From Chloroflexota bacterium (GTDB taxonomy: Bacteria; Chloroflexota; UBA11872; VXOZ01), in the NCBI GenBank assembly GCA_964291655.2, contig OZ219802.1, forward strand, positions 928,001-992,000: a stretch of DNA of 64,000 bases, read 5' to 3'. Positions 49,743 to 58,078 of the stretch are shown one piece after another. The position numbers and the translations under genes were made by a program. The first letter of the stretch is position 1. Each line of letters begins with the position of its first letter. The notes under the pieces are model-generated. The model ran no database searches and was not told the origin of the DNA. It saw only the letters and a list, made by a program, of their open reading frames with translations.

Positions 49743-50993
49743 CTACGCGCCGGCCTCCTGACGTTCTTCAGAAAAGACCGCCTCGGCGAGCACATCCCGC
49801 TCAATCATGCCAACCAGCCGCTCTTCGTCGTCTACTACTGGGATCTTCCCTTCCTGAGGCCACGCTACCGAGAGCGCATCCTCAATACACTGCCCTGCCA
49901 GCACCGGTTCGCAGCGACGGGAGACAGCATATTCGATGGTAGCGCTGCCGTTCCCGGCGGCATCGCGCGCTTCTTTCCGGCAGATTTCTCCCCGATAGCG
50001 GCCATCCTCTGCAATGACGAACGCGGCCTCGACACCGCCAGACTCCAACTGAGCAAGGGCGTCCCGTGCCGTCGTCGTGGGTTTCAAGAGGACTCCACAC
50101 CGTTCCATGACGTAACCGACGGTAACAATCGAAGACGTACGCACGTCGCGCGTGAAGTCGGCCACGTAGTCGTCAATCGGATTCGCCATGATCTCTTCAG
50201 GCGTGCCAATCTGAACGATGGCCCCGTCGCGCATAATGGCGATGCGGCTGCCCAGCTTGGTAGCCTCCGCCAGATCGTGGGTAATAAAGACGATGGTCTT
50301 GTGCAACTGCTCTTGCAGGCGGATAAGCTCATCCTGCATATCCCGCCGGATGAGAGGGTCCAGCGCACTGAAGGGCTCATCCATGAGCAGAATTTCGGGA
50401 TCGCAGGCCAGGGCCCGCGCAAGACCCACGCGCTGTTGCATGCCGCCGCTGAGAGCTGCAGCGTGGTACTCTTCCCAGCCATCCAGACCGACCACTCGCA
50501 GCAGTTCGGCCGCTCGCGCTCGCCGGTCTTCCCGCGGCACCCCTTGCACTTCCAAGCCCCAGGCGACGTTATCGATTACCGTGCGGTGGGGCAACAGGCC
50601 GAAGTACTGGAAAACCATGCCGGTCTTCTGCCGGCGCGCCTGCGTGAGTTCTTCATCGGTATAGCTGAGAATGTCCTCACCGTCGATGATGACTTCACCG
50701 ACGGTCGGCTCTATGAGACGTATGAGACAACGCACCAGCGTGGACTTGCCACTGCCGGAGAGTCCCATTACGACAAAGGTCTCGCCCTGATGGACGTCGA
50801 AGCTCACGTCGTGCAACGCCAGCACCGAGTCCAACTCGTCCTGGACTTCGTCCTTCGTCTTACCCTCGAGGGTCTCCCCCACGTCAGGTCCGTCGGCCGG
50901 TCCAAACACCTTCCACAGGCCACGCACGCTCACGCGCACTTCGCCGTTGGCCGAAGTCGGTAAATCCGGCAATTCTTCCGTTGCTTGGTTCAT
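49743..50993 (-). CDS. Glycine betaine ABC transporter ATP-binding protein with CBS domains (ProV/OpuAA-like)
   Basis: GLSGSGKS, LSGGMQQRVGLARAL, LLMDEPFSALDPLIR, C-terminal CBS pair. Confidence 0.95.
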   Translation of the reverse strand: MNQATEELPDLPTSANGEVRVSVRGLWKVFGPADGPDVGETLEGKTKDEVQDELDSVLALHDVSFDVHQGETFVVMGLSGSGKSTLVRCLIRLIEPTVGEVIIDGEDILSYTDEELTQARRQKTGMVFQYFGLLPHRTVIDNVAWGLEVQGVPREDRRARAAELLRVVGLDGWEEYHAAALSGGMQQRVGLARALACDPEILLMDEPFSALDPLIRRDMQDELIRLQEQLHKTIVFITHDLAEATKLGSRIAIMRDGAIVQIGTPEEIMANPIDDYVADFTRDVRTSSIVTVGYVMERCGVLLKPTTTARDALAQLESGGVEAAFVIAEDGRYRGEICRKEARDAAGNGSATIEYAVSRRCEPVLAGQCIEDALSVAWPQEGKIPVVDDEERLVGMIERDVLAEAVFSEERQEAGA

Positions 50994-51265
50994 GACTACT
51001 CTTCGACCTCCCTGAAGTTACCGGCAGCTCGTTGCCGCAGATCGAAGCACTGTAGCTTCAGGATCGCAACACCAACCCCGCAGTAGCCATAGTCAGGGTA
51101 CCAAGCTGGTATGCCCCTTGCAAGCGTTTTGCACTATTTCTAAGCCAGAAGCCTGTCTGGTCAATGCAATAGGACAACCCCTCTCATTGACCCGCGCGCA
51201 CGCAAAGAGTCATACTGAGGGAGACGGATCGGCACACGCAATAACGCACCAAGAGGAGTACATCC

Positions 51266-51502
51266 ATGGCCGAGAAGCAACGTCTCAGCATCGAATACTG
51301 CACCTCGTGAGGCTACCTCCCAAAAGCCGTCAGTTTGACGGAACAAGTGCTGGATAAGCACGAACAGAACATCGAGAGCCTGGAGCTCATCCCCTCCGGC
51401 GGCGGCGCCTTCGAAGTCACCCTGGACAACAACGTCATCTTCTCCAAACACCAGGAAGGCCGCTTCCCCGAGCACGACGAGGTGCTGAAACACCTAGGGT
51501 AG
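51266..51502 (+). CDS. SelW/SelT/SelH (Rdx) family selenoprotein with CxxU motif, 78 aa
   Basis: GAGGAG RBS; IEYCTS-TGA(51308-10)-GYLPKAV...LIPSGGGAFEVTLDNNVIFSKHQEGRFP; SECIS-like hairpin CCGTCA-GTT-TGACGG at 51327-41; absent from the ORF track. Confidence 0.92.
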
Positions 51503-51723
51503 GTGTCTAGCAACATTGTCACTTTCCCGTCCGATATAAGTAATCCTGTTCACGTGCTTCAGCGTTAACGCAGACAATGCCGGCTTCGTGTAAGCGAGGA
51601 CCGGCGTTGGGGGGTTAATGTCCGTGTCAAAAAGGACTTGCACCTCTTTGGCTTACTCTTCTTTGCTCGAGGGATTAACCCAACCGGGACAGTCAAGTCC
51701 CTTACCTGCGCTACAATGCATCA

Positions 51724-51860
51724 TCGGCGGCTGTTACTTTGATAAACTGGCAATTGGTGGTTGCAATCACTAACCCACGTTGTTTCGTGCGAGCACCCAA
51801 CTCTTAAAATAAAACCGTTGCAGAATTGCCCTGACTTAGTAATTCGCTTCCGCCGTACTT
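51724..51860 (+). ncRNA. Putative structured RNA or leader upstream of the DRT4-like RT
   Basis: TACAAT -10-like box at 51712-17; three concentric stems CGGCGG/CCGCCG, TTACT/AGTAA, GGCAATT/AATTGCC with internal hairpins. Confidence 0.4.
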
Positions 51861-51913
51861 AGTTTCGGAGGGACGCAATTGTGGTAAGCAAAATTACATG
51901 AGGTGTTGCAACG

Positions 51914-53434
51914 ATGAGTGTTGACAAGGATTTCTTGCTAAATGCCTTATTGAAGCACAATTTCCTGCCAACTCAAAAGCGAGAGAAAGAGGAGATTCCA
52001 CAAATAATCACCTCAGGTGCATTCACAGAGTGTGTAGCAAGAAGACTTGCAGACTGCAAGGAGGCTCGAGCGGACCACCCTGGTTACGACACGGTCGAGT
52101 ACAGATTGACGCGATTCAACGGCGTGGCGCGGGTTTGCTCGATACCCCACCCTAAGGCCTATGCGACCCTTGCGTTGAGCATTGCCGAGAATTGGGAGCA
52201 ACTCAAGTACATATCAGAGAACACTGTCAGCAAGATTGTCCCAAGGAAACATGAAGATGGCAGGATCATCGTGATGGAGTACGAGAACCTGCCGAAAGCC
52301 CATCAAGCCTTAGAATACTCGTTTGGGCGCCACTTCATGGTGCGCACGGATATATCGAACTTCTTTCCCAGCATTTATTCGCACTCAATTCCTTGGGCGA
52401 CTGTAGGTAATGCCAAGGCAAAGAAAGCCATAGGAAAGAATTCCAAATGGTACAACAGTCTCGACCGCGCAATCCGAATGACTAAGAGAAGTGAAACAGG
52501 CGGTATTGCAATTGGCCCAGCTACTTCTAACATAATTGCCGAATCAATTCTCGCTCGCGTGGACTGTAAACTGGGAGATGAGTACACCTATACAAGATAC
52601 ATAGACGACTATACGGCATATTGCGAGAGCCACGAGAGAGCACAGGGCTTTGTACTATCACTTGCGGAAGAACTGAGCAAGTACAAACTAGCACTAAATA
52701 TTGGCAAGACGGAATTCATTCCGCTCCCACAAGCCACTGGTGAAAACTGGATTGTTGACCTAAAGAATGCTTTGCTAGATAGAGGCGATTTGTCCCCCGA
52801 AGGTGCGATCAACTACCTGGACTTCGCACTCCGTCTTTCGAGACAAACACCCGATGGTAGCGTATTGAAGTACAGTCTAAAGGCACTGCTTAGTACGGTT
52901 TTGGATTCAAGATTTGACGTAGATGGTGAAGTAGTGGACATTGTACTTCATTATGCTCTGAATCTATCGTTTCATCAGCCTGTCCTACTCCCACTGCTTG
53001 AAAGGCTTTTCGACGAAGCATTGTCGGTGGGGGGAGATTTTCGGCACAAAGATGAGCTCCAGGCCCTATTGTGTGAACATGTACGCCTACGCCACTCTGA
53101 TGCAATCTCTTGGATATTGTACTTTTCCGTCAAGTACGGAGTGCCAATACGAGATTGCTGTGCCTGTCGAATTGTGGAGCTTCAAGACTGCATACCAATG
53201 CTACTCCTAAGTCAATCTGGAGATGAGAGCCATGAGAATAGAGTTATCGAGTTCGCCAGGGGGTTAGAGAAGAGTAACCTATATGGGCTTGACCAACAGT
53301 GGCTGCTCCTGTATGAGTTGGTATTCGATGAAAGAATGGAAAACCCCTATCGGAAGAAAGATTCATGCGAAACAACCTTCGATATCATGAAGTCAGAGGG
53401 TGTGAGATTCATCAGGCCTCCGACCGTAACATAA
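51914..53434 (+). CDS. Defence-associated reverse transcriptase, DRT4-like (UG/Abi class) with helical C-terminal domain
   Basis: HNFLPTQK..EEIP, GYDTVEYRLTRFN, SIPHPKAY, DGRIIVM, DISNFFPSIYSHSIPWA, GIAIGPATS, catalytic YIDD, LNIGKT; visibly AT-richer than its neighbours; DRT4 assignment rests on recalled family motifs. Confidence 0.85.
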   Translation: MSVDKDFLLNALLKHNFLPTQKREKEEIPQIITSGAFTECVARRLADCKEARADHPGYDTVEYRLTRFNGVARVCSIPHPKAYATLALSIAENWEQLKYISENTVSKIVPRKHEDGRIIVMEYENLPKAHQALEYSFGRHFMVRTDISNFFPSIYSHSIPWATVGNAKAKKAIGKNSKWYNSLDRAIRMTKRSETGGIAIGPATSNIIAESILARVDCKLGDEYTYTRYIDDYTAYCESHERAQGFVLSLAEELSKYKLALNIGKTEFIPLPQATGENWIVDLKNALLDRGDLSPEGAINYLDFALRLSRQTPDGSVLKYSLKALLSTVLDSRFDVDGEVVDIVLHYALNLSFHQPVLLPLLERLFDEALSVGGDFRHKDELQALLCEHVRLRHSDAISWILYFSVKYGVPIRDCCACRIVELQDCIPMLLLSQSGDESHENRVIEFARGLEKSNLYGLDQQWLLLYELVFDERMENPYRKKDSCETTFDIMKSEGVRFIRPPTVT

Positions 53435-53527
53435 CTACCATCACAGGATCCAAACCTAAACGCGTAGTATTGCGGTGTTCGGTGGATCTAGTCCGGAAGT
53501 CTTGTTCATATCGAGTGTGAGAAAGCA

Positions 53528-54091
53528 TTGAGTCTTTCCAACCCGCCTACAAAGACCCGGCGTCGCCGGTCGATTCGCCTGAAGGACTACGACTACGCGC
53601 AGGCAGGCGCGTACTTCGTCACCATCGTCGTCCAAAGGCGGACTTGCCTGTTCGGTGAGGTTGTGGATGCCAGCATGCGCCTGAACTAGACAGGCCAATT
53701 GGTGTCCGATGCCTGGCAGTGTCTTGGGACCCAATACCCTTACGTGGTATTGGACGAATATATTGTCATGCCGAACCATCTCCACGGCCTCATCATGATC
53801 ACTGACGAAACGCGTAGGGGCGGTTCGCGAACCGCCCCTACTTCGCCTGCGGTTAAACGCAAACCCTTGGGACGCCTCATTGGCGCGTTCAAGACCGTCA
53901 GCACGAAACGGGTCAATCTCGCGCATGGTCTTTCCGCCAGTCCCTTGTGGCAGCGGAATTACTTCGAACACGTGGTGCGCAGCGAAGATTCCATGACTAA
54001 GATCCGCCAGTACATCCACGATAACCCGGCGCGCTGGGAACTCGACCGGGAGAATCCTTTGGTAGCAGGCATGCAACCAAGACGTAGTTGA
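53528..54091 (+). pseudogene. REP-associated tyrosine transposase (RAYT, IS200/IS605-type Y1 HUH) with an in-frame TAG
   Basis: RRSIRLKDYDY..AGAYFVTI, TAG at 53687-89, VMPNHLHG (HUH), LWQRNYFEHVVR, YIHDNP. Confidence 0.85.
53814..53841. repeat. REP palindrome GTAGGGGCGGTTCGCGAACCGCCCCTAC inside the RAYT
   Basis: Perfect 28-bp palindrome; identical copy at 54117-54144. Confidence 0.9.
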
Positions 54092-54116
54092 CCGCATTGG
54101 GTGCGGCTGTATCCCG

Positions 54117-54375
54117 GTAGGGGCGGTTCGCGAACCGCCCCTACCTTTGCCAGCAAGCAAACGCATGCCTCTGGGTCGCCTCATTGGCGCATTCAAGACG
54201 GTAAGTAGGAAACGGGTGAATTGTGCCTAGGGGCTCTCCGGCAGTCCCCTTTGGCAGCGCAACTTCTTTGAGCACATCGTGCGCAGCGAAGATTCACTGA
54301 TGAAAATTCGTCAATAAAAAAACGATAACCCGGCGCGCTGGAGATTCGATCGGGAGTACCCATTGGCAGCGCCAT
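54117..54375 (+). pseudogene. Degenerate duplicate of the RAYT 3' half, starting at the REP
   Basis: REP followed by PLGRLIGAFKTVS..SPLWQRNFFEHIVRSEDS..DNPARWE with stops and a frameshift. Confidence 0.8.
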
Positions 54376-54497
54376 AGGAACCAGGGGTTGTGACCGCCTC
54401 TGCGGAAGCCAACGCCTAACGGCGCGCCTGCTTGCCTGACTGTCCGGTGGCAGAGGTAACCTGTGTCGTCAGTCTACGTCTTGTACTTTTTCCTCTA

Positions 54498-54518
54498 ACT
54501 AGTCTAGTATAGACTAGT
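54498..54518. promoter_or_regulatory. Putative TA autoregulatory operator
   Basis: ACTAGTCTA-GTA-TAGACTAGT palindrome just upstream of the antitoxin. Confidence 0.6.
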
Positions 54519-54561: not shown

Positions 54562-54840
54562 GTGAAAGAACCGGCTACCCAGCGTGTTTGGACCGTGGCG
54601 GAGGCCAAGGCGCGGCTTTCTGAAATCCTGCGGCTCGCGGAATCCGAAGGGCCGCAGCGTATCGGCGCCAGGAAAGCCTTCATCATAGTGCCGGCCCGGG
54701 TCTGGGCCGAGAAGGAATCGCAGCGCAAACCGCTCGGTCGCTGGCTGATCGAGAATACGCCGCGTGGGGCTGAGCTTGCAATTCCCAGCCGCCGCGAGCG
54801 TGGACGCACAATCCCGTTTGTCAACGAAGCAGACGAATGA
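54562..54840 (+). CDS. Type II antitoxin, Phd/YefM family
   Basis: WTVAEAKARLSEILRLA..EGPQRI; AAGGAG RBS; ATGA overlap with the toxin gene. Confidence 0.88.
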   Translation: MKEPATQRVWTVAEAKARLSEILRLAESEGPQRIGARKAFIIVPARVWAEKESQRKPLGRWLIENTPRGAELAIPSRRERGRTIPFVNEADE

Positions 54841-55256
54841 GCGGCTACCTCCTGGACACAAACGTGGTCTCGGAGTTAGCAAGGCGGATTCCACACCCGG
54901 CCGTTATTCGTTTCCTGGACACGCAGGATGACCTTTGGCTATCGGCTATCGTCCTGGGAGAGCTTTCGTTGGGCGTTCACCTTCTCCCACATGGCCGCCG
55001 TCGCGATAGCTTGAGCGACTGGTTGTCACAATTTATAGCGGACTTCGACCAGCGTGTATTGCCCATCGACCGGTGGGAAGCCGAGCGAGCCGCTGCGTTC
55101 CAGGCACACGCGCGCCGAGAAGGTAGAGTGTTGCAACTGGCCGACGCGCTCATCGCGGGAACGGCAGTGACGAACGATCTGACGATAGCAACGCGGAACG
55201 TCAGGGATTTCGATGGCCTGGACGTTGCCGTTATCAATCCCTGGGATGTCCCATGA
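54837..55256 (+). CDS. vapC: Type II toxin, VapC PIN-domain RNase
   Basis: YLLDTNVVSE, LGEL, ADALIAGTA, ATRNVRDF, INPW. Confidence 0.93.
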   Translation: MSGYLLDTNVVSELARRIPHPAVIRFLDTQDDLWLSAIVLGELSLGVHLLPHGRRRDSLSDWLSQFIADFDQRVLPIDRWEAERAAAFQAHARREGRVLQLADALIAGTAVTNDLTIATRNVRDFDGLDVAVINPWDVP

Positions 55257-55486
55257 CTGCTTTCACCACAGCCGCTTTAAGACTGGCGTTGGCCTCCCCC
55301 TATTCCTGACTTCTGCTGGGTCGAGTGAGACCGTCGATCCTCTTCCCCTTCCGTTCAGGACACGCCACACCGTCACGCCGGTACGTGTGGGAATCTTCCC
55401 ATAGCCCTATAGTTGCGCACGTCAACCCGCTATGAATGATTAAATGCAGAAAGGCAAGAAAACCCGATAAACACCCCAAAATTCCC

Positions 55487-55540
55487 TTGACACCCCTATA
55501 TGTTGTTTCCTATAATTTCCTCTACACCAAGATATACCTT
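55487..55540 (+). promoter_or_regulatory. nrdJ promoter with tandem NrdR boxes
   Basis: TTGACA(55487)-N18-TATAAT(55511); NrdR-like boxes CCCCTATATGTTGTTT (55493) and CACCAAGATATACCTT (55525), 32 bp apart. Confidence 0.75.
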
Positions 55541-55651
55541 CGTCGTGCCATTCAAATGGCACCGCTGCAACCACAAGGTTTCCTTGGATCCCTTAAAAAA
55601 CCTCCACTGCGCGAACCACGCGCTGCCGCATCCAGCGAGGAGAATCCAGCC

Positions 55652-58078
55652 ATGGCAGTCATTCACACCAACGGCAGAAGCACCAACGGTCAACCAATGG
55701 CCGAGCCCGAATCCGGCACCATGCTGGAAGGCATCCGGCAGAAGGTCTTTGCCGACAGATATACCTTAAAGGATGAGACCGGCGCTGCCTTGGAGCACTA
55801 TCCGGAGCAGATGTGGCAGCGGGTAGCACGCGGCATTGCCGCCGTGGAAGAAGAGCAGAACCGCGCTGCGTGGGAAGAGAAATTCTACCGGGCGTTGCAG
55901 GACTTCAAATTCGTTCCCGGCGGCCGCATCCTGGCCGGCGCAGGCACGGGCCACGAGGTCACTTTCTACAATTGCTATGTGATCCCCTCGCCGCAGGACA
56001 GCCGCGGCGGCATTCTGGAAAACCTGAGCGTGATGACGGAGATCATGGCGCGCGGCGGCGGCGTGGGCATAAATCTTTCCAGCCTGAGACCACGTGGTTC
56101 TTACATTCGCTCTGTGAACGGCACCGCCAGCGGGCCGTGCTCGTGGGGCGAACTCTACTCGGTGGCCACCGGCGACGTCATCCAGCAGGGCGGTTCGCGC
56201 CGCGGCGCGCTCATGCTCATGTTGGACGACTGGCATCCGGACATCGAGGAGTTCATCACGGTCAAGACCGACCTCTCCCGCATCAACCACGCCAACCTCT
56301 CCATCTGCGCTTCCGACTCCTTTATGGAAGCGGTCAAAGCGGACGGCAACTGGGACCTGGTCTTCCCGGACACGACCGATCCGGAATACGACGAAATCTG
56401 GAACGGCGACCTGGCCGCTTGGCGCGCCCTGGGAAAGGGCGTCACTGTGCACCGCACCGTGAAGGCGCGCGAGGTCTGGGCCAAGATCTGCGAAGCCGCG
56501 TGGCGCTCGGCAGAGCCCGGCCTGGTCTTCATGGAGCGTTACCAGAAGCGCTCCAACACCTGGTACTTCGAGCAGATTCGCTGCGTGAACCCTTGCGGCG
56601 AACAGGGCTTGCCCGAATGGGGCGTGTGCAATCTCGGGGCGATAAACCTCTCCGCGTTTGTGCAAGACGGCGTGATGGACTACGAATTGCTGGCCGAGAC
56701 GTCAAAGATCGCCATCCGCTTTCTCGATAACGTGATCGACGCCACGCCGTACTTCATAGAGGACAATAAACGCCAACAACGCGACGGCACGCGGCGGACG
56801 GGCCTGGGCACTATGGGGCTCGCCGACGCGCTCATCAAGATGAAGGTGCGCTACGGCAGCGAAGAGTCTATGCCCGTTGTCGAACGCATCTACCGCACCA
56901 TCCGCGACGCTTCCTACAGCGCGTCAGTCGATATTGCCAAGGAGAAGGGACCGTTCCCGGATTTCGAGTCCGATAGATATTTGCAGGGCTCATTCATTCA
57001 GCAACTACCCGCTGCCCTGCAGAATGAGATAGCAGCGCACGGTGTCCGCAACGGCGTGTTGCTTACGCAGGCGCCCACCGGCACGACGTCCCTGCTCTCG
57101 GGCGTGTCAAGCGGCATTGAGCCTGTGTTTGACTTTGCCATGAAACGCGTCGACCGCACCGGCGAGCACATTCTCTACCACCCGCTCTTCAAAGAGTGGA
57201 AAGACGCCCACGACGGCGAGCCCGTGCCGGATTACTTCGCCTCCAGCAACGACCTGCGTCCGGAGGAACACGTGCGTGTGCAGGCGGTCATCCAGGAATA
57301 TACCGACTCTAGCATTTCGAAAACCGTCAACGCGCCGAATTCCTATGAAGTAGCCGACGTCGAAGAGCTCTATACCCTGGCCTACGATCTGGGCTGCAAG
57401 GGTATAACCTTCTTCCGCGACGGCTCGCGCACTCCCGTACTCTCCCGCGTGGAGGAGAAGAAGGAAGAGGACGTTAAGGATGCCAACAAAGCTGCTGACA
57501 GCAATCAGGCAAGCAGCGCGGCGGTACCGATAGAGATGCACCCGCGCAAACGCCCGGCAGTGGTCGAAGGCGTGACCGTGAAGAAACTCACGGCCCGCGG
57601 CGAACTCTACGTGACCATAAACGCCGTCGGCGAAGGCGAGGACCGCCGTCCTATCGAGATATTCCTTACTCTCGGCAAAGCCGGCACGGCCGATCAAGCG
57701 TACCTGGAAGCGCTGGCGCGCTCGATCACGCTCGGTCTGCGGAGCGGCGTGCCGATCAAGGAGCACTACAAGCACCTGCGCGGCATTGGCTCATTGGACG
57801 TGATGGGAATCGGCCCCAACCGCGTGCTCTCGGTACCCGATGCCATCGCACAGGTGATCGCCGAGATCTACGAGATTCCTACCGGTACCAACGGCATGAA
57901 CGGCGCGGCGGCCACTGAAGAAGAATCCGTCGTGCAACTCGGCTTGGCCGGCGCCCAGGCTGCAAACCCGACTCGCGAAGCGCGGCATGGCGAGATTTGC
58001 CCTGACTGCGGCGCGGCCGGTGTGGTCTACGAAGAAGGCTGCGAGAAATGCCTCGTCTGCGGGTACTCACGCTGCTAG
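55652..58078 (+). CDS. nrdJ: Adenosylcobalamin-dependent (class II) ribonucleotide reductase with TSCPD domain and zinc ribbon
   Basis: PGGRIL, NCYV, QGGSRRGALM, NPCGEQ, CNLG, APTGT, DSSISKTVN; C-terminal CPDC..CEKCLVCGYSRC; GAGGAG RBS. Confidence 0.93.
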   Translation: MAVIHTNGRSTNGQPMAEPESGTMLEGIRQKVFADRYTLKDETGAALEHYPEQMWQRVARGIAAVEEEQNRAAWEEKFYRALQDFKFVPGGRILAGAGTGHEVTFYNCYVIPSPQDSRGGILENLSVMTEIMARGGGVGINLSSLRPRGSYIRSVNGTASGPCSWGELYSVATGDVIQQGGSRRGALMLMLDDWHPDIEEFITVKTDLSRINHANLSICASDSFMEAVKADGNWDLVFPDTTDPEYDEIWNGDLAAWRALGKGVTVHRTVKAREVWAKICEAAWRSAEPGLVFMERYQKRSNTWYFEQIRCVNPCGEQGLPEWGVCNLGAINLSAFVQDGVMDYELLAETSKIAIRFLDNVIDATPYFIEDNKRQQRDGTRRTGLGTMGLADALIKMKVRYGSEESMPVVERIYRTIRDASYSASVDIAKEKGPFPDFESDRYLQGSFIQQLPAALQNEIAAHGVRNGVLLTQAPTGTTSLLSGVSSGIEPVFDFAMKRVDRTGEHILYHPLFKEWKDAHDGEPVPDYFASSNDLRPEEHVRVQAVIQEYTDSSISKTVNAPNSYEVADVEELYTLAYDLGCKGITFFRDGSRTPVLSRVEEKKEEDVKDANKAADSNQASSAAVPIEMHPRKRPAVVEGVTVKKLTARGELYVTINAVGEGEDRRPIEIFLTLGKAGTADQAYLEALARSITLGLRSGVPIKEHYKHLRGIGSLDVMGIGPNRVLSVPDAIAQVIAEIYEIPTGTNGMNGAAATEEESVVQLGLAGAQAANPTREARHGEICPDCGAAGVVYEEGCEKCLVCGYSRC

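Follow-up and report, generated by a model that had tools for sequence, protein, structure and literature searches.

Among defence reverse transcriptases (RTs), DRT4, also designated UG15, is described as an enzyme which acts alone. The available text of PMC12783706 presents it as protein-primed and as working without a non-coding RNA (ncRNA) and without a template, and names the mutants Y125F and D240A/D241A. DRT4 has been reported to possess a dNTP-dependent RNase activity, according to the accessible part of bioRxiv 10.64898/2026.10.27.754916. In the portion of bioRxiv 10.1101/2021.12.02.470933 that is available, UG15 defence survived recoding of its sequence, and immunity required the C-terminal alpha-helical repeat domain. 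An earlier, sequence-only reading of the window (the whole stretch of 64,000 nucleotides analysed) proposed that a DRT4-type RT gene within it is preceded by an undescribed cognate RNA or a structured cis-regulatory leader. Had the RT–ncRNA idea been true, DRT4 could no longer have been regarded as an untemplated enzyme that stands alone. The locus is likely to be an intact, single-gene DRT4 carried on a low-GC insert of ~1.9 kb at a variable defence site, its leader being ordinary acquired upstream DNA that holds no RNA gene.

The reverse transcriptase

51914-53434, + strand: intact DRT4 (UG15) reverse transcriptase gene encoding 506 aa; matched by PADLOC Drt4, Pfam RVT_1 and PDB 21ou_A

The 506-aa RT with a YIDD motif that had been read from the letters is borne out by the open reading frame at 51914-53434 (+), whose catalytic motif is RYIDDYT, of the YxDD type. 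Past an in-frame stop, the earliest start codon is the ATG at 51914, which matches residue 1 of homologues. The DRT4-type assignment is likewise upheld, by full-length matches to both the Drt4 model and the solved UG15 structure. The PADLOC model Drt4 PDLC02180 matches at E 6.8e-169, with RT residues 3-503 aligned to profile positions 4-498 of 532, and PDB 21ou_A ('UG15') at E 3.5e-105, with RT residues 4-500 aligned to residues 6-503 of the chain; Pfam RVT_1 is matched at E 1.4e-11. The runner-up PADLOC family is Drt6 (E 1.2e-85), and AbiK scores E 1.6e-38. Class 2 and retron PADLOC models are weak, their best E values lying between 1e-11 and 1e-12 (Drt3a, 6.8e-12), and a retron chain in the PDB reaches E 4.4e-5 only.

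The residues expected of an active DRT4 are aligned as well. D231 and D232 align with D240 and D241 of the solved UG15 chain, Y123 aligns with Y125, the priming tyrosine of E. coli DRT4, and all three are invariant in a 35-sequence alignment of homologues. The C-terminal region aligns with the solved chain to residue 500 and, judged from the alignment alone, would form the alpha-helical repeat domain. P0002, the closest homologue, is 71% identical, P0112 also falls at 71-72%, and the nearest relatives come from Chloroflexota/Dehalococcoidia MAGs. Judged by its homology to the characterised enzyme of E. coli, the RT would be expected to work alone. It would produce protein-primed, untemplated single-stranded DNA from Tyr123, and the sensing of phage signals would switch on its abortive-infection RNase activity.

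A low-GC insert at a variable site

51266-51502, + strand: Rdx/SelW-like selenoprotein gene (Pfam Rdx) with an in-frame TGA at CxxU; left edge of the site
51503-51606, + strand: ancestral 3' region of the Rdx gene with a conserved hairpin at 51579-51605, from the congener alignment
53435-53519, + strand: 3' tail of the insert, holding the right junction; congener homology resumes at 53519 (G011), 53539 (G003) and 53550 (G004)
53528-54091, + strand: IS200-like (RAYT-type) Y1 transposase gene with an in-frame TAG at 53687-53689; right edge of the site

The RT had been placed in AT-richer DNA, and this is so: GC content is 0.46-0.50 across 51500-53499 as against 0.56-0.62 in the flanks. As annotated, its nearest neighbours comprise an ABC transporter, the Rdx gene, the RAYT-type gene, a PIN gene and a ribonucleotide reductase. 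Neither the leader nor the RT is present in any of the 16 congeners. In one of these (G004) the left flank matches at 98% as far as window position 51495, the right flank matches again from 53550, and only 204 nt separate the two; the site is empty in this genome and in three others (G013, G011 and G003). An insert running from about 51607 to about 53519 would thus lie between the Rdx selenoprotein gene and the RAYT-type transposase gene.

Other congeners carry other genes at the same place: a Schlafen AlbA_2/HATPase_c_4 protein in G012, a SIR2 protein (PDC-S65, E 8e-206) together with a TPR protein in G009, a methylase–HNH fusion in G006 and a DUF2806 protein in G014. The site beside the Rdx gene is therefore one at which cargo is swapped within the genus, with DRT4 here, other cargo in four congeners and nothing in four. 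The left-hand gene matches Pfam Rdx at E 1.1e-22 when its TGA is read as selenocysteine (U); all 11 of the copies inspected in congeners retain this codon, and selB scores above its cut-off in the same genome. On the right, the second part of the transposase gene matches Pfam Y1_Tnp at E 2.4e-5; its stop is seen in the translation, and the G004 orthologue is an intact ORF of 186 aa.

The ends of the insert carry short repeats only and have no sequence in common with the cargo of other congeners, and the whole insert has no match in plasmid and phage collections searched in distant mode. A 17-nt inverted pair of 76% identity (51599-51615 and 53555-53571) was considered as an element end and set aside, since both of its arms fall within ancestral DNA. 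Contigs of runs X1 and X2 cover the whole stretch without differences and may be the source of this DNA. In contigs of run X5, from another study, three identical pieces of 151 nt occur at low depth.

The leader and its proposed fold

51607-51913, + strand: 307-nt non-coding leader of foreign origin, presumed to hold the promoter and 5' UTR; empty sites show no homology to it
51725-51855, + strand: proposed multibranch fold; stems present, unsupported as an RNA element
51900-51905, + strand: Shine-Dalgarno-like GAGGTG, 8 nt 5' of the ATG, read from the sequence

Some 410 nt before the RT had been described as holding no credible ORF, and this is sustained. The ORFs of at least 40 aa in 51503-51913 are three: 51618-51773 (+, 51 aa), 51494-51643 (-, 49 aa) and 51565-51696 (-, 43 aa). 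Judged by the congener alignment, the first 104 nt of this stretch is the neighbour's ancestral DNA and was not brought in with the RT. Positions 51569-51609 are 78% identical over 41 nt to the empty-site congener G004, and the hairpin at 51579-51605 has a counterpart at the corresponding alignment position of G004, G013 and G003. Within the foreign part the TACAAT box is present where it had been placed, at 51712-17, as read from the sequence; a consensus promoter scan of the leader called no -35/-10 pair. Searched against Rfam at E up to 1, the interval 50500-54500 gave nothing in the leader, and the leader has no second copy in its own genome. The sole Rfam match in that interval is a weak, unrelated sRNA at 53815-53920 on the minus strand.

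It might be supposed that the leader encodes a small partner protein of the RT, the 51-aa ORF at 51618-51773, which starts with ATG and has a G-run before it. The spacing from G-run to ATG is only 3 nt, a search of 5.8 billion proteins found no homologue, and no comparable ORF is kept in relatives. The idea is close to refuted and is scarcely credible.

The sequence-only reading had drawn three stems closing one upon another around two small hairpins. All 28 of the 28 pairs are canonical at the positions given for them, and the three outer stems reappear in the minimum free energy (MFE) structures of the 141-, 213- and 411-nt stretches. That much of the fold stands. Both inner hairpins are missing from the 141-nt MFE structure, and the exact structure as drawn scores -25.0 kcal/mol. 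The 141-nt MFE is -34.7 kcal/mol, compared with -29.2 +/- 3.7 for shuffled sequences (z -1.51; 18 of 200 shuffles as good). Longer stretches are no better than their controls: z is +0.73 for the 213 nt of 51718-51930, where 156 of 200 shuffles do as well, and +0.55 for the 307-nt foreign part, 51607-51913, where 69 of 100 do as well and the MFE structure does not contain the proposed fold. The minus strand of the fold gives z +0.31. The whole 411 nt does beat all 100 shuffles (z -2.88), and this stretch includes the ancestral GC-rich hairpin at 51579-51605. The nested stems are most likely chance complementarity. The case shows that nested stems in a short, AT-richer spacer may convince without being significant.

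Upstream regions of related loci

Conservation of the leader was assessed across 163 loci encoding related RTs, the closest of them 45-59% identical to the RT here, as compared with 71% for P0002. Neither the sequence nor the fold is conserved upstream of these homologous RTs: the best blastn match to the leader has E 0.29, nhmmer returns nothing at E up to 10, and a covariance model (R1) of the proposed fold finds only itself and two matches at E about 10, one within an RT gene and the other downstream of one. Of 43 free-standing loci the first 30 were folded, 29 relatives and the window: the 180 nt preceding the RT give z < -2 in 5 of the 29 relatives (L101, L108, L092, L099 and L072), and for the closest free-standing relative tested (L004) z is -1.98 with none of 40 shuffles as good. 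Thus some free-standing relatives may have structured DNA upstream of the RT. Repeats of ~102 nt upstream of the RT in Poribacteria loci were also considered; they are not RNA repeats but TPR-coding sequence, and five upstream ORFs there match TPR families.

The closest RTs with DNA at hand (L107, L082, L112, L083, L034 and others) are 45-59% identical to the one in the window. Where RT identity is at least 45%, 16 of 28 loci have an HsdS C-terminal motif immediately ahead of the RT, and in most cases the two reading frames overlap at an ATGA. The proportion is 10/26 at 40-45% identity, 4/28 at 35-40% and 1/67 below 35%. The median distance to the upstream ORF of at least 100 aa is 89 nt over 140 rows, the window itself being included at 420 nt. 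This DRT4 subclade thus usually sits directly behind hsdS in type I restriction–modification (R-M) operons. The linkage of UG15 to type I R-M may already have been described and no novelty is claimed for it.

These observations bear on the proposal that the leader is a cognate ncRNA, serving DRT4 as a template, scaffold or inhibitor in the manner of DRT2, DRT9 and DRT3. In its favour are adjacency and paired stems only, together with the fact that Mestre et al. raise ncRNAs in further UG/Abi groups (available text of bioRxiv 10.1101/2021.12.02.470933). Against it, DRT4 needs neither ncRNA nor template, as far as the available text of PMC12783706 goes, and the RT here aligns end to end with the solved UG15 enzyme, keeps the priming tyrosine and scores E 6.8e-12 with Drt3a against 6.8e-169 with Drt4. 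Furthermore, the fold lies within chance at 141, 213 and 307 nt, no RNA is conserved in the 163 loci, and 16 of the 28 close relatives have no room for one. A cognate ncRNA is highly improbable.

The same evidence weighs upon the other form of the proposal, a lineage-specific cis-regulatory 5' UTR tuning the translation or stability of the mRNA of a potentially toxic abortive-infection enzyme. At 307 nt the untranslated stretch is a long one, several MFE folds share the outer stems, and a 3' hairpin of the 213-nt fold extends into the Shine-Dalgarno region. The fold energies of the 307- and 213-nt stretches nevertheless resemble those of shuffles, the leader has no counterpart in the 163 loci and no Rfam match, and in most close relatives the RT is coupled in translation to hsdS and lacks any UTR. 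Such a regulatory role is quite unlikely. In neither form is the structured-leader proposal sustained: its fold is no better than shuffles, it is unconserved in 163 loci, and in most close homologues the RT abuts hsdS, which leaves no leader at all. It is very unlikely, too, that the 307 nt yields an RNA private to this lineage which controls or binds DRT4, either as a 5' UTR acting in cis to silence a toxic abortive-infection enzyme until infection or as a partner gained after the loss of hsdS.

The hsdS linkage of the clade raises a further reading, that the leader represents what is left, in decayed form, of the gene that stood ahead of the RT in the donor, most likely the 3' end of hsdS. 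Two relatives (L007 and L084) keep HsdS C-terminal stubs of 56 and 52 aa before the RT, and in the window a weak tblastn match (E 0.12) places the HsdS C-terminus of L112 at 51808-51909, the expected position. Neither protein nor DNA profiles bear this match out. With HMMs built on the C-terminal 70 and 130 aa of HsdS, a search of the six frames gave best E values of 0.63 and 0.15, both elsewhere, and a DNA profile of the final 330 nt was blank in the leader, although it found the L007 and L084 stubs, left out as positive controls, at E 1.7e-25 and 1.6e-14. Such a remnant is accordingly unlikely.

Under the preferred reading, of a single-gene DRT4 with ordinary acquired upstream DNA, the 307 nt of foreign sequence would supply a presumed promoter, 5' UTR and Shine-Dalgarno site. 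Such a role would be needed because this copy appears to have lost the hsdS gene which directly precedes the RT in most relatives.

Comparison with known systems

The RT–ncRNA systems, namely DRT2/UG2, DRT9/UG28, DRT3, DRT10 and the retrons, resemble this locus in pairing a defence RT with a sizeable 5' non-coding stretch. In those systems, on the available text of bioRxiv 10.1101/2021.12.02.470933, the ncRNA is conserved across homologues and the RTs belong to other classes, whereas the leader here has neither conservation nor fold signal and the RT is of class 1. DRT6 (UG12) and AbiK are likewise class 1 enzymes, protein-primed and template-independent, and on both models the RT scores far below its score with Drt4. 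Closer still is the hsdS-linked DRT4 subclade, in which the start of the RT overlaps the stop of the type I R-M specificity gene (ATGA); the RT in the window differs in being free-standing, with no hsdS before it. The E. coli DRT4/UG15 enzyme (PDB 21ou, 9vdo and 9ltm; PMC12783706) is longer than this divergent RT, at 540 aa compared with 506. The two are alike in their end-to-end alignment, the YIDD motif, the priming tyrosine, the C-terminal region and their organisation as a single gene.

Identity of the reverse transcriptase

The reverse transcriptase (RT) gene lies among the following features.

51266–51502, forward strand: Rdx/SelW-like selenoprotein gene, with an in-frame TGA within a CTS-U-G motif
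51503–51913: leader upstream of the RT
51579–51605: hairpin
8 nt before the RT ATG: Shine–Dalgarno-like GAGGTG, read from the sequence
51914–53434, forward strand: RT ORF of 506 aa, containing RYIDDYT
53528–54091, forward strand: RAYT-type (IS200-like) Y1 transposase gene, adjoining the insert, with one in-frame TAG (53687–53689)
54837–55256, forward strand: PIN-domain (VapC-like) gene, downstream of the RAYT-type gene
55436–58078, forward strand: ribonucleotide reductase gene with TSCPD domain, downstream of the RAYT-type gene

The sequence-only reading described a DRT4-like enzyme of 506 residues with a YIDD motif in AT-richer DNA, and in these respects it stands: length and motif are as described, and the ORF region has 46–50% GC against 56–62% in the flanks. 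The match to the PADLOC family Drt4 spans the entire protein (E 6.8e-169); Drt6 (1.2e-85) comes next, and then UG30, UG14 and AbiK. In Pfam the protein matches RVT_1 only. Among solved structures it aligns best with 21ou_A, a chain labelled UG15 (E 3.5e-105, residues 4–500 against 6–503), with Y123 aligned to Y125 and D231/D232 to D240/D241. DRT4 mutants Y125F and D240A/D241A are named in PMC12783706, and Y123, D231 and D232 are invariant in an alignment of 35 homologues. The assignment is correct, and the enzyme is an intact DRT4.

An insertion at a variable site

Neither leader nor RT occurs in any of the 16 congeners, where the flanks of the insert are found, and the leader has no second copy in its own genome. 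In the congener G004 the left flank can be followed at 98% identity up to window position 51495 and the right flank again from 53550, with 204 nt between; in G013, G011 and G003 the distance from the Rdx gene to the transposase gene is 120–310 nt. A 41-nt block within the G004 spacer matches window 51569–51609, and the hairpin at 51579–51605 recurs at this position downstream of Rdx in G004, G013 and G003, which makes the leader's initial 104 nt ancestral. Foreign DNA, as delimited by these alignments, extends from about 51607 to a point within 53435–53519, comprising the last 307 nt of the leader, the whole RT gene and a brief stretch after it.

The spacer between the Rdx and RAYT-type genes was compared using window 51503–53550 and eight congener loci (L165, L169, L176, L177, L183–L186). 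It is empty in G004, G013, G011 and G003, holds DRT4 in the window genome and carries other cargo in four further congeners. Cargo ends of congeners and the window insert have no sequence in common, and no repeats or shared ends marking insertion were found at the spacer. The spacer is a cargo-swapping hotspot in the genus, with several cargoes of defence type.

Cargo of the Rdx/RAYT-type spacer in congener genomes
G012: Schlafen AlbA_2 / HATPase_c_4 protein
G014: DUF2806 protein
G009: SIR2 protein (PADLOC PDC-S65, E 8e-206) and TPR protein
G006: methylase–HNH fusion and unknown 504-aa protein

The genes bordering the site have features of their own. The Rdx product matches Pfam Rdx at E 1.1e-22 with TGA read as U, all 11 congener copies examined retain the in-frame TGA, and selB in the window genome scores above cut-off; some 20 nt beyond the Rdx TGA, a short hairpin (CCGTCA...TGACGG) could be the SECIS element. 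The RAYT-type gene has an intact orthologue of 186 aa in G004. It is flanked and overlapped by two 30-nt stretches, at about 53812–53841 and 54114–54145, present in many copies at 97–100% identity in all 17 genus genomes. Since they match on both strands they are palindromic, and they are REP-like elements.

The leader and its proposed fold

The 411-nt stretch that separates the upstream gene, with its stop at 51502, from the RT ATG has only three ORFs of 40–51 aa. It is extremely improbable that the leader encodes a small protein. The leader had been proposed to hold an RT-associated ncRNA with a multibranch fold (about 51725–51855) downstream of a TACAAT box. The box is found at 51712–51717, the stems are located as described and 28 of the 28 proposed pairs are canonical. 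Minimum free energies (MFE) were compared with those of 100 or 200 shuffled sequences per stretch, and no signal was obtained at 141, 213 or 307 nt (z −1.51, +0.73 and +0.55).

Folding energy of leader stretches against shuffled sequences
51720–51860 (+), 141 nt: z −1.51; shuffles as good 18/200
51720–51860 (−), 141 nt: z +0.31; shuffles as good 122/200
51718–51930, 213 nt: z +0.73; shuffles as good 156/200
51607–51913 (foreign part), 307 nt: z +0.55; shuffles as good 69/100
51503–51913 (whole leader), 411 nt: z −2.88; shuffles as good 0/100

The MFE of the 141-nt stretch is −34.7 kcal/mol (shuffles −29.2 ± 3.7), and the exact structure proposed reaches only −25.0 kcal/mol; neither of its inner hairpins occurs in the MFE structure. 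The proposed fold is also missing from the MFE structure of the 307-nt foreign part. The sole stretch standing out from its shuffles is the whole 411 nt, which contains the GC-rich hairpin of the neighbouring gene. Rfam gave no match in the leader at E up to 1, and a promoter scan of the leader returned no −35/−10 pair.

Upstream DNA of related reverse transcriptases

Loci encoding related RTs were collected, 80 from genome contigs, 80 from metagenome contigs and three from the same class (163 in all), the closest relatives with DNA available being 54–59% identical. Neither the leader nor the fold is conserved in them: blastn gave a best E of 0.29, with 16–21-nt matches elsewhere in the loci, and nhmmer, run to E 10, nothing. 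The covariance model made from the proposed structure scores the window at 188 bits; of its two other matches, both with E about 10, the first falls within an RT gene, antisense to it, and the second downstream of an RT gene. When the upstream 450 nt were compared all against all, the window grouped with itself alone. The nearest upstream ORF of at least 100 aa lies a median of 89 nt from the RT (140 rows), against 420 nt by the same measure in the window; the long leader is therefore not a family trait. That it is a private cis-regulatory UTR is quite unlikely.

Structured upstream DNA in relatives leans the other way. Of 43 loci with 200 nt or more of free upstream DNA, the first 30 (29 relatives and the window) were folded: over the 180 nt preceding the RT, z is below −2 in 5 of the 29 relatives (L101, L108, L092, L099, L072); the closest relative, L004, has z −1.98 (shuffles as good 0/40), and the window's own stretch z +1.11. 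These structured stretches have nothing in common with the window leader by sequence or covariance model; terminators or repeats belonging to adjacent genes could account for them, and L099 has a simple repeat there. A true RNA partner of the RT is very improbable, given a fold without signal over shuffles and nothing conserved in 163 loci; the RT–ncRNA proposal failed every test run, of fold energy and of sequence and fold conservation alike.

In six Poribacteria loci (L024, L027, L029, L039, L043, L047) repeats of about 102 nt precede related RTs. They encode 34-aa TPR repeats of the upstream protein, and TPR families match five upstream ORFs; a TPR protein also partners the SIR2 cargo in G009.

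Many relatives do have conserved DNA in front of the RT, but it is protein-coding: most of the close ones have an ATGA in which the RT start overlaps the stop of hsdS, a type I restriction–modification (R–M) specificity gene ending in a conserved helix (...LRDTLLPKLLSGEL...). Of 158 loci, 9 had too little sequence; the motif was counted in the other 149, each with 200 nt or more upstream.

Loci in which the hsdS motif immediately precedes the RT, by RT identity to the window
45% or more: 16/28
40–45%: 10/26
35–40%: 4/28
Below 35%: 1/67

Pfam Methylase_S matches 31 of 100 scanned upstream ORFs. Linked loci include L107, L082, L112, L083, L034, L086, L111, L085, L113, L008 and L011; in L107 the upstream ORF has an HsdM_N domain fused to an hsdS-type C-terminus, and L007 and L084 keep stubs of 56 and 52 aa, comprising the conserved C-terminus only. 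This suggests that the RT of this DRT4 subclade travels together with hsdS or recombines at its conserved 3′ end. Operon linkage with type I R–M is described as a defence signature for UG/Abi RTs (bioRxiv 10.1101/2021.12.02.470933).

Because of the stubs, the leader was checked for being one itself. Profiles built on the 3′ end of hsdS, at protein and DNA level, recover the left-out stubs of L007 and L084 at E 1.7e-25 and 1.6e-14 but find nothing in the leader. An unrecognisable donor-gene remnant is an unlikely explanation of the leader.

Comparison with known systems

Most probably, then, the locus is an ordinary DRT4 that acts alone, on a 1.9-kb insert gained by horizontal transfer, in which the foreign 307 nt upstream of the RT would supply the promoter and 5′ UTR. 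The groups with conserved ncRNA named in the available text of bioRxiv 10.1101/2021.12.02.470933 are UG2, UG3+UG8, UG28 and UG27; UG15 is not listed there, and was tested in recoded form. DRT4 is reported to form a hexamer whose dNTP-dependent RNase activity is set off by an SSB-like protein and phage NrdAB (bioRxiv 10.64898/2026.10.27.754916). By homology, the window enzyme would share the mechanism described with cryo-EM structures in PMC12783706, that of template-independent, protein-primed synthesis of random ssDNA by a single-gene system.
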